Below the pieces are notes generated by a model. It saw only the letters and a list, made by a program, of their open reading frames with translations, did no database searches and was not told the DNA's origin. Shown here piece after piece: positions 12,495 through 17,333 of a DNA stretch of 31,719 nt. Origin of the DNA: a virus. Every line of letters begins with the position of its first letter. The stretch's first letter is position 1. The DNA is taken from the UHGV virus genome UHGV-0106476; one strand, given 5' to 3'. Made by a program: the position numbers and the translations under genes.

Positions 12495-12673
12495 GACGAC
12501 AGCGACGAAGTATCACCGACATCATCTGCGAAAACTGCAAATACCTTCCAACGAAACGCTCCAGAAATAAACGCAAGCCAATCCCAAAAGAATCTGACGT
12601 AAAAACCTTCAACTACACGGCTCACCTGTGGGATATCCGGTGGCTTAGAGAACGTGCGAGGAAAACAAGGTGA
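12491..12673 (+). CDS. ninE: NinE
   Basis: 60 aa ([60 protein letters not shown]), recalled as close to lambda NinE. Confidence 0.8.
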
Positions 12674-12840
12674 TTGACCCAAATCGAAGTTACGAACAAG
12701 AAAGCGTCGAGCGGGCTTTAACGTGCGCTAACTGCGGTCAGAAGCTGTATGTGCTGGAAGTTCACGTGTGCTCCGATTGCTGCGCAGAACTGATGAGCGA
12801 TCCGAATAGCTCAATGTACGAGGAAGAAGACGATGAATGA
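12670..12840 (+). CDS. ninF: NinF
   Basis: 56 aa from a GTG at 12670 overlapping the ninE stop ([26 protein letters not shown]...), recalled as close to lambda NinF; below the ORF-track cutoff. Confidence 0.65.
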
Positions 12841-12928
12841 TTTCTCTGAGCTTATTTCCTTCAAAAAAGACAGAGAAGAAATGCGGACTGAATCTGTCTA
12901 TTACGTCCAACACCGGAATAAACGCTAG
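12833..12928 (+). CDS. tiny ORF between ninF and ninG
   Basis: 31 codons ([31 protein letters not shown]); may be non-coding. Confidence 0.15.
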   Translation: MNDFSELISFKKDREEMRTESVYYVQHRNKR

Positions 12929-12988
12929 GTGCTTGATCAGGAGCTGGTTATTACCGGAGACCTGGCATTCAGAACATATAAGGCCAGC

Positions 12989-13096
12989 ATGGAAATGAAG
13001 GATTTCCCTAAATGTGGTTCTGAAAGAGAAGCCGCGTTAAAGCTGGCTGAGTGGATGCAGAGAATGGCTGCTGCAATTGAGAATTACTGGAGCTAA
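12989..13096 (+). CDS. tiny ORF between ninF and ninG
   Basis: 35 codons from an ATG ([35 protein letters not shown]); extends to a GTG at 12929; weak RBS. Confidence 0.2.
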
Positions 13097-13101
13097 CCAT
13101 A

Positions 13102-13713
13102 ATAGCTAAACCAGCGCGAAGAAGATGTAAAAACGATGAATGCCGGGAATGGTTTCACCCTGCATTCGCTAATCAGTGGTGGTGCTCTCCAGAGTGTGGA
13201 ACAAAGATAGCACTCGAACGACGAAGTAAAGAACGCGAAAAAGCGGAAAAAGCAGCAGAGAAGAAACGACGACGAGAGGAGCAGAAACAGAAAGATAAAC
13301 TTAAGATTCGAAAACTCGCCTTAAAGCCCCGCAGTTACTGGATTAAACAAGCCCAACAAGCCGTAAACGCCTTCATCAGAGAAAGAGACCGCGACTTACC
13401 ATGTATCTCGTGCGGAACGCTCACGTCTGCTCAGTGGGATGCCGGACATTACCGGACAACTGCTGCGGCACCTCAACTCCGATTTGATGAACGCAATATT
13501 CACAAGCAATGCGTGGTGTGCAACCAGCACAAAAGCGGAAATCTCGTTCCGTATCGCGTCGAACTGATTAATCGCATCGGGCAGGAAGCAGTAGACGAAA
13601 TAGAATCAAACCATAACCGCCATCGCTGGACTGTCGAAGAGTGCAGGGCCATCAAGGCGGAGTATCAGCAGAAACTCAAAGACCTGCGAAATAGCAGAAG
13701 TGAGGCCGCATGA
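13102..13713 (+). CDS. ninG: NinG (Rap-type recombination protein); N-terminus encoded without a canonical start codon
   Basis: The frame is open from 13081 and encodes a full NinG-like protein ([33 protein letters not shown]...CISCG...[10 protein letters not shown]). The first canonical in-frame start is the GTG at 13513; the conserved N-terminus begins at ATA (13102-13104). Confidence 0.6.
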
Positions 13714-13916
13714 CGTTCTCAGTAAAAACCATTCCAGACATGCTCGTTGAAGCATACGGAAACCAGACAGAAGTAGCACGCAGACTGAAATGTAGTCGCG
13801 GTACGGTCAGAAAATACGTTGATGATAAAGACGGGAAAATGCACGCCATCGTCAACGACGTTCTTATGGTTCATCGCGGATGGAGTGAAAGAGATGCGCT
13901 ATTACGAAAGAATTGA
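13710..13916 (+). CDS. ninH: NinH
   Basis: 68 aa ([39 protein letters not shown]...), recalled as close to lambda NinH; ATGA overlap with ninG. Confidence 0.8.
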
Positions 13917-14565
13917 TGGCAGCAAATACCGAAATATTTGGGTAGTTGGCGATCTGCACGGATGCTACACGAACCTGACGAAAAAACTGGAGACGATAGG
14001 ATTCGACACCAAAAAAGACCTGCTTATCTCGGTTGGCGATTTGGTCGATCGCGGTACAGAGAACGTCGAATGTCTGGAATTAATCACATTCCCCTGGTTC
14101 CGAGCTGTACGTGGAAACCATGAGCAAATGATGATTGATGGCTTATCAGAGCGTGGAAACGTTAATCACTGGCTGCTTAATGGCGGTGGCTGGTTCTTCA
14201 ATCTCGATTACGACAAAGAAATTCTGGCTAAAGCTCTTGCCCATAAAGCAGAAGAACTTCCGTTAATCATCGAACTGGTGAGCAAAGGTAAAAAATATGT
14301 CATCTGCCACGCCGATTATCCTTGTGACGAATACGAGTTTGGAAAGCCTGTTGATCATCAGCAGGTAATCTGGAACCGCGAACGAATCAGCAACTCACAA
14401 GACGGGATCGTGAAAGAAATAAAAGGCGCGGACACGTTCATCTTTGGTCATACGCCAGCAGTGAAACCACTCAAGTTTGCCAACCAGATGTATATCGATA
14501 CCGGCGCAGTGTTCTGCGGAAACCTCACATTGATTCAGGTACAGGGAGAAGGCGCATGGGCATAA
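13894..14565 (+). CDS. ninI: serine/threonine protein phosphatase (lambda NinI-type)
   Basis: 221 aa from the ATG at 13894 ([24 protein letters not shown]...), with metallophosphatase motifs GDLHG, GDLVDRG and GNHE; GGAG RBS. Confidence 0.85.
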
Positions 14566-15074
14566 GAGAACTAAACCTCACCAAAGAGCAGCACGAGTGG
14601 CTGAATGGCTGGCTTGAACTGTGGGGCGCATGGGTTTATTCAGGTCGTCTGGAAAAGCGCATGAGCAGCGTAATAGCGAAGTTCATGGAGAGCGTAGAGC
14701 CGGGAAGAGTTATGACAAGGCCAATGTGTAATGATGATGATGGAATGTTGATTTCTCAGGTCGTCGATTCCGTCATGTACATTGACAAGAAAGCCTTTGG
14801 CATCCTCCTCAGCTACTACGCTCATGGTTCATCAAAGCGAGCAATTGCATCCTACTATCACGCGACTGCAAAGCCACGCAAGATGTGTGGACGTGGTGGC
14901 GAGGGATGGAGAAAACCTTCACTGGCAACCTGTAGAAACGAAATTGACGACATCCTGAAATCGTCGTTATTTGTTTTGTACCAACCAATGCAAAATGCTT
15001 TCAAAATGCGTAAACGTGTTGAGAAAGTTAAGCATGTTGCTGTTAAAAGCCTTGACATGCAATTAGCCATTTAG
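14556..15074 (+). CDS. Q: Q-type late-gene antiterminator
   Basis: 172-aa ORF between ninI and the late promoter/lysis genes; LELWGAW and [10 protein letters not shown] segments resemble recalled Q proteins of the P22 gp23 / phage 82 type. Call is by synteny plus partial recollection. Confidence 0.6.
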
Positions 15075-15351: not shown

Positions 15352-15861
15352 ATGCTTTTAACAAGTGAACGCATTAAAGAATCTTTGTCATTTAATCCAT
15401 CTACCGGCATCTTCGTGTGGAAGGTAAAAACAGGAAGATCTAAGCCTGGCATGATTGCTGGTTCGCTGAATTCGTTCGGTTACAGGCAAATATCTTTAGG
15501 AGGTAAAAGATACTTTGCTCATCGTCTGGCGTGGATTTTGTGCAATGGCGAAATAAATAGCGGCTTAGAAATAGATCATGTGAATGGCATAAGAGACGAC
15601 AACAGGATATCAAATCTTAGGATTGTTAGCAGATCGCAAAACAACATGAACACAATAACCTCGAAAAGGAACCGGTCTGGTTGTCGTGGTGTTTGTTTCC
15701 ACTCGAGAGATAGGCTTTGGCATGCTCGTGTTTTTGTTAATAGAAAAACTGCGGCCTTCAAGACATTTAAACGCAAAGAGGATGCTATAAAATTTGTGAC
15801 TTCGGAAAGGGAAAAAATATTCGGAAGTTACAACAAGAATTGTGGTGAATGCGCAGGCTGA
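15352..15861 (+). CDS. HNH homing-type endonuclease with C-terminal AP2 DNA-binding domain
   Basis: 169 aa with an HNH_3-like core (KRYFAHRLAWILCNG...IDHVNGIRDDNRISNLRIVSRSQNNMN) and an AP2-like C-terminus (GCRGVCFHSRDRLWHARVFVNRKTAAFKTFKRKEDAIKFV). Confidence 0.7.
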   Translation: MLLTSERIKESLSFNPSTGIFVWKVKTGRSKPGMIAGSLNSFGYRQISLGGKRYFAHRLAWILCNGEINSGLEIDHVNGIRDDNRISNLRIVSRSQNNMNTITSKRNRSGCRGVCFHSRDRLWHARVFVNRKTAAFKTFKRKEDAIKFVTSEREKIFGSYNKNCGECAG

Positions 15862-16869: not shown

Positions 16870-17333
16870 GCAGAGTAACCGCGATTATCTCCGCTCTGGT
16901 TATCTGCATCATCGTCTGCCTGTCATGGGCTGTTAATCATTACCGTGATAACGTCATCGCCTACAAAGAACAGCGAGATAAAAAAGTCAGTGAGCTGAAG
17001 CAGGCGACCGCCACCATTACTGACATGCAGCAGCGCCAGCGTTCTGCTGATGCACTCGATGCTAAATACACGAAGGAGTTAGCTGATGCGAAAGCTGAAA
17101 ATGATGCTCTTCGGCGCAAGCTTGATAATGGCGGCAGGGTGCTCGTCAAAGGAAAATGCCCTGTGCCATCCTCAGCCGAAACCTCCGGCGCCTCCGGCAT
17201 GGGCAATGATGCCACCGTCGAACTCTCTCCAGTTGCTGGACGAAACGTTCTCGGTGTCCGGGACGGAATTATCCGCGACCAAACAGCACTGAGAACGCTT
17301 CAGGAATACATCAGGACGCAATGCCTTCGATGA
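16866..17333 (+). CDS. Rz: Rz i-spanin
   Basis: 155 aa with an N-terminal TM segment and coiled-coil periplasmic domain; ATGA overlap with the endolysin stop; Rz1 is embedded in the +1 frame. Confidence 0.8.
17086..17292 (+). CDS. Rz1: Rz1 o-spanin lipoprotein (embedded in Rz)
   Basis: 68 aa [21 protein letters not shown]... with a lipobox and proline-rich mature region, fully inside Rz in another frame. Confidence 0.8.

Follow-up and report, generated by a model that had tools for sequence, protein, structure and literature searches.

The nin region of the viral genome UHGV-0106476, analysed here over its whole stretch of 31,719 nucleotides (the window), contains a ninG (rap) gene whose first codon reads ATA at 13102-13104, where homologues carry the initiator ATG. 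This raises the question of whether the codon reflects a start-codon mutation, a sequencing error or a non-canonical mode of initiation, the three options that a preliminary description of the locus had left side by side. The features concerned are the following.

13102 to 13713, plus strand: ninG/rap frame of 203 codons plus TGA, intact except for its first codon
13102 to 13104, plus strand: ATA at the conserved ATG initiator position; base 13104 is A, and G in all relatives
13099 to 13101, plus strand: second in-frame ATA, matching the first ATG of the ATG-ATG of lambda; ATA or another codon in most relatives
13078 to 13080, plus strand: in-frame TGA closing the ninG frame upstream, which rules out a long N-terminal extension
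13513 to 13713, plus strand: C-terminal ORF of 66 amino acids from a GTG, starting inside the second CxxC and devoid of CxxC 101-104 and DAGH 113-116
13710 to 13916, plus strand: ninH, whose ATG overlaps the ninG stop (ATGA), with its own GAGG at 13702-13705 (Pfam Phage_NinH, E = 2.4e-44)

Downstream of the TGA at 13078-13080, the frame stays open as far as the TGA at 13711-13713, and its translation ends in ...RSEAA. The part from 13102 to 13710 matches the NinG family PF05766 from position 2 to 192 of the 193 profile positions (E = 5.9e-91, 304 bits), in agreement with the earlier claim that the frame encodes a complete NinG/Rap protein including the Cys-rich region. The gene is 98 to 99% identical to NinG of HK544, lambda and E. 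coli prophages, and its product harbors the His-Me finger/treble-clef motifs CISC (residues 101 to 104), DAGH (113 to 116) and CVVC (137 to 140). A search of PDB sequences with NinG yielded no relative. Judged by these sequence features, the predicted product is unambiguously a NinG/Rap homologue, and endonuclease activity on Holliday junctions and D-loops may be expected of it by homology. NinG has been assigned to the His-Me finger nucleases (group 24), with a predicted C-terminal catalytic domain (PMC5714182).

With lambda NinG/Rap (NP_040639, PF05766), the window gene shares about 98% DNA identity over its length, the full-length Pfam match, the arrangement CxxC...DAGH...CxxC and the location in the nin region upstream of ninH, ninI and Q. 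In contrast to lambda, in which the gene opens with ATG-ATG (MMAKP) and is preceded by ninF, the first codon of the window gene is ATA and a phrog_1258 ORF lies upstream, so that a mosaic junction falls exactly at the ninG start. The canonical initiator found in all homologues is thus the one feature that the window gene lacks, which concerns its expression and not the homology of its sequence.

The gene resides in a mosaic P22-like/lambdoid E. coli phage related to CUS-3, phiv205-1, HK620 and Sf6. The nin region comprises, in this order, NinB, Dam, NinE, NinF, a small ORF, NinG, NinH, the NinI phosphatase and Q, with Pfam hits for Dam, NinE, NinF, NinG, NinH, Metallophos (NinI) and Q, and the gene order in the nin region is the same in lambda, HK544 and E. 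coli E189. Downstream of Q lie an HNH_3 gene, the genes for lysis and a morphogenesis module of the P22 type. We also considered whether the window represents a decaying or defective prophage and rejected this, since the essential and large genes named below are full length and the only lesions seen are those in ninG and in the small phrog_1258 ORF. Repressor, O, the DnaB-like helicase, TerL, portal, coat and DNA-transfer proteins all give full-length family matches, and the ORFs are tightly packed. As a separate observation, the HNH_3 gene (PF13392; 169 amino acids, 15352-15861), which lies between Q (14556-15074) and the lysis genes, was found in some relatives (L129 and L140) and is missing from others, a distribution that suggests a mobile or homing-type insertion of this putative endonuclease gene.

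In the lists of ORFs and near-cognate codons, the first in-frame ATG, GTG or TTG of the window ninG is the GTG at 13513, corresponding to residue 138 of 203, and 67% of the protein is encoded upstream of any canonical start. Both this position and the ATA at the expected initiator had been pointed out before and were confirmed here. As the anomaly consists of a single base, chance statistics are not applicable, and its rarity was judged by comparison. In alignments, the matching codon is ATG in lambda, HK544 and E. coli E189, which bears out the ATG-to-ATA difference expected from the sequence. In IMG/VR, every genuine occurrence of the ninG 5' end (121 of 121, from 120 loci) is preceded by ATG. 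When 152 loci were compared, 138 had the N terminus AKPxRRC; 134 of these start with ATG and four with ATA, and all four ATA loci belong to the clone of the window itself. Most homologues have a single ATG aligned with 13102-13104 and encode a protein of 203 amino acids starting with MAKPARRR. This is the start that had been expected for lambda; it holds for most homologues, whereas the lambda RefSeq entry itself (NP_040639) is annotated from the tandem ATG-ATG and reads MMAKPARRR, with 204 amino acids.

The ATA records are the ENA contig ERZ1304861 NODE_1497, which is the window, the JGI contig Ga0244883_102993 (3300029577), which was counted twice in the tally, and the ENA contig k119_28421 (ERZ27235172). 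Their identity to the window is 100% over 12.3, 5.5 and 5.3 kb. Outside this clone, an exact match to window positions 13005-13205 (201 nt) was absent among 5,426 complete E. coli genomes and 50,697 phage records, the best match in the E. coli genomes showing 98.0% identity, and an exact search of one genome per species with the 21-mer containing the ATA gave no match. Two metagenome contigs that did match this 21-mer were dismissed as chance hits, as the sequence context is unrelated. Among the loci compared, no homologue outside this clone starts at an ATA or has a genuine downstream start; two short NinG calls that might have been independent lesions, one of 66 amino acids in GCA_000176635.2 (2590-3201) and one of 65 amino acids in CP005998.1 (around 1087-1698), are annotation artefacts, since the former locus carries an intact, ATG-initiated ninG of 203 codons and the latter a full ATG-initiated ninG.

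The nearest relatives share with the window the alleles of the gene upstream of ninG, which carries two lesions of its own.

12833 to 13096, plus strand: phrog_1258 gene of 89 codons in E. coli E189, in the window split by a TAG at 12926-12928 and ended early by a TAA at 13094-13096

Relative to E189, the nonsense changes are TCG to TAG at 12926-12928, directly followed by a GTG, and GAA to TAA at 13094-13096, which ends the gene two codons early and places its stop 5 nt before the ninG start. Nine assemblies from Logan, ENA and NCBI (L128-L132 and L155-L158) share both the TAG and the TAA with the window, and therefore a lineage with the broken phrog_1258 gene circulates naturally. All nine have ATG at the ninG start and a NinG call of 203 amino acids. 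In ninG, one of them (L130) differs from the window by one base only, G instead of A at 13104. Base-by-base comparison over 1 to 3.6 kb with five of the nine (L128-L132) revealed just two differences private to the window, the base at 13104 and a synonymous substitution at position 12613 in ninE. With so few private differences around it, the change at 13104 is very recent, and the stretch that holds it is not rich in errors. On this comparative evidence, the ATG-to-ATA transition is derived, private and very recent, having arisen in a lineage that circulates naturally.

Deliberate engineering or heavy decay might also come to mind, as three differences from E189 that disrupt frames fall within 180 bp (TCT/TCG to TAG, GAA to TAA and ATG to ATA). 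Both were rejected, because the two nonsense alleles occur in the nine other assemblies of a naturally circulating lineage and the ATA alone is private.

Two further positions vary within the sub-lineage. Position 13646 encodes NinG residue 182 as Arg (window and L130) or Met (L128, L129 and L131), and position 14973 encodes Q residue 140 as Val or Ile; both look like ordinary standing variation. With respect to the junction upstream of ninG, the ninG start codon (13099-13102) marks the exact point from which the window resembles lambda and HK544; upstream of it, the window has the phrog_1258 ORF and lambda and HK544 the end of ninF, so that a mosaic module junction is located at a gene boundary. 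In a RusA/YbcO-type prophage (L147), the similarity covers the upstream gene and reaches about 13109, and its next gene also starts with ATGGCTAA.

Of the options raised previously, a start-codon mutation is the one favored by these comparisons, given that all homologues have ATG and that the nearest relatives differ in ninG at 13104, G against A. We consider it very probable that the locus carries a recent, private G-to-A change at 13104 (ATG to ATA), an ordinary point mutation in a dispensable ninG, and that expression of the gene is probably crippled.

One rival explanation lies in the quality of the sequence itself: the phage would in truth have ATG, and the A at 13104 would stem from a sequencing or consensus error in a low-coverage metagenome assembly. 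The k-mer coverage of the source contig is indeed low (4.5x; cov_4.51), none of the isolate genomes and phage records searched has the ATA allele, and the three ATA assemblies may come from one sample or one individual. Nevertheless, the three assemblies (SPAdes-style, JGI and MEGAHIT-style), made with different assemblers and ending differently (31,719, 12,320 and 17,318 nt), are 100% identical and agree at the assembly level on the A at 13104, which makes an assembler artefact unlikely, and two of the ATA contigs are each recorded in two samples. There is also no surplus of private differences nearby (one synonymous change in 3.6 kb), and 13104 lies neither in a homopolymer nor in a methylation-motif context. 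A sequencing error, as considered in the preliminary description, is therefore improbable. As to the contigs themselves, the end of the 17,318-nt MEGAHIT contig (ERZ27235172) maps to window position 17318, which implies a start at window position 1, as for the SPAdes contig, and the JGI contig spans 5352-17671. From these common break points, the contigs seem to end at the same branch points of the assembly graph, and the samples behind them may be identical or closely related.

If the ATA is accepted as real, its possible use as a start depends on the translation signals around it.

13089 to 13092, plus strand: Shine-Dalgarno (SD) sequence GGAG, 9 nt upstream of the ATA at 13102, with -5.6 kcal/mol for pairing with the anti-SD, and the same in the ATG relatives

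This GGAG is the only SD-like element upstream of ninG, and the predicted local fold is the same for A or G at 13104. Since the SD is retained, low-level initiation at the AUA is possible. Published in vivo values for AUA initiation range from roughly 0.02 to 15% of AUG: in E. coli reporters it reached 1 to 2% (0.02 to 3%) of AUG (bioRxiv 10.1101/063800), and a T4 rIIB AUG-to-AUA mutant, as cited in PMC5499595, lost about 85% of its translation (about 15% kept) at 25°C and was temperature sensitive. In one in vitro system, AUA behaved like AUG (PMC5499595). AUA efficiency is strongly context dependent, and expression could therefore have fallen only modestly.

A further reading is a selected non-canonical start, in which AUA or AUA-AUA is used to keep Rap low or condition dependent, as AUU is in infC and pcnB. 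The codon would then both work as a start and be of advantage to the phage: by natural tuning of dosage, or in dependence on temperature and nutrients, it would hold the Rap nuclease at traces, with the help of the SD and of translation termination 5 nt upstream. In line with this, the well-spaced SD and the stop 5 nt upstream have been kept, so that ribosomes are delivered to the site, AUA is able to initiate, at times efficiently, and the ORF shows no other damage. The comparison with homologues speaks against it: all 134 loci outside this clone, the nearest relatives included, have ATG, the initiation region shows no accompanying changes, and a single-base difference from an ATG relative leaves too little time for selection to show. 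We therefore regard a selected start as highly improbable. The likeness to infC (AUU) and pcnB (AUU) of E. coli lies in a near-cognate AUN codon downstream of a functional SD, with expression that is low and IF3 sensitive in infC and pcnB and would be so in ninG; the codons of infC and pcnB are conserved across species as part of an autoregulatory circuit, whereas the ATA of ninG is private to one clone. Conservation of the non-AUG codon among orthologues, as in infC and pcnB, was not found for ninG, all loci outside the clone having ATG.

A barely credible alternative is that NinG is made by another route, for which it can be said that the ninG frame is open from 13081, that the upstream ORF, which lies in the +1 frame relative to ninG, terminates at 13096 and that an ORF of 65 to 66 amino acids does get called by gene callers, but a start at the CTG at 13087 would lie inside the only SD-like element with no SD further upstream, a -1 frameshift from the upstream ORF would find no slippery heptamer in 13079-13096 (GAG AAT TAC TGG AGC TAA), a functional short protein from the GTG at 13513 would cover only positions 134-192 of the NinG profile and lack CxxC 101-104 and DAGH 113-116, and the ATG relatives with the same upstream sequence need no such mechanism. 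Of the non-canonical initiation proposed previously, the CTG thus proved a poor candidate, while leaky initiation at the AUA is compatible with a start-codon mutation.

Under the point mutation favored here, ribosomes would still bind the GGAG, and fMet-tRNA would pair poorly with the AUA, which is disfavored by IF3. Full-length Rap would then be made at a small fraction of its normal level, as expected of a hypomorph-to-null allele, and judged by the published AUA values, the ATA allele is most likely a strong hypomorph, possibly a null. Any product from the GTG at 13513 would be inactive, as half of the zinc/treble-clef site would be missing from it, together with the region of the catalytic His. 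The change closely resembles the T4 rIIB AUG-to-AUA mutation (Belin et al. 1979, as cited in PMC5499595), the same third-position transition in an initiator with an intact SD. The T4 mutant is a laboratory selection with measured protein output, whereas the ninG variant is a natural allele from a metagenome.

Lambda Rap is a non-essential Holliday-junction and D-loop endonuclease (PMC3945230, PMC5714182). Upon deletion of rap, lambda is viable, and recombination is reduced 300- to 500-fold in the RecA pathway and 3- to 6-fold in the Red pathway (PMC3945230). Because Rap is dispensable for growth, the phage would be expected to stay viable, and the expected phenotype would be a drop in recombination through the RecA pathway with homologous DNA, for example plasmids and prophages. 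A polar effect on ninH is speculative. Loss of the start may represent the first step of a neutral or mildly deleterious gene loss rather than a programmed feature. A recently dead gene and a gene still expressed under selection would look alike here, the rest of the ORF being without further lesions.

The biological weight of the finding is small, as start-codon point mutations are to be expected in dispensable accessory genes of phages. Start-codon loss of this kind is already known, the AUG-to-AUA class having been characterized since the work on T4 rIIB, and the allele is nothing new in kind. If real, it would amount to a naturally occurring rap hypomorph in a P22-like phage that is intact in other respects, with isogenic-like ATG relatives in public data, which could be used to study the role of Rap in mosaicism outside lambda.

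The lesion in ninG also affects how the gene is recorded. In the ENA contigs ERZ1304861 NODE_1497 and k119_28421, ninG was dropped by the gene callers, and the JGI gene caller annotated a fragment of 65 amino acids, starting from the second GTG (13516), as NinG. As a result, automatic annotation misreports the gene content of this phage.
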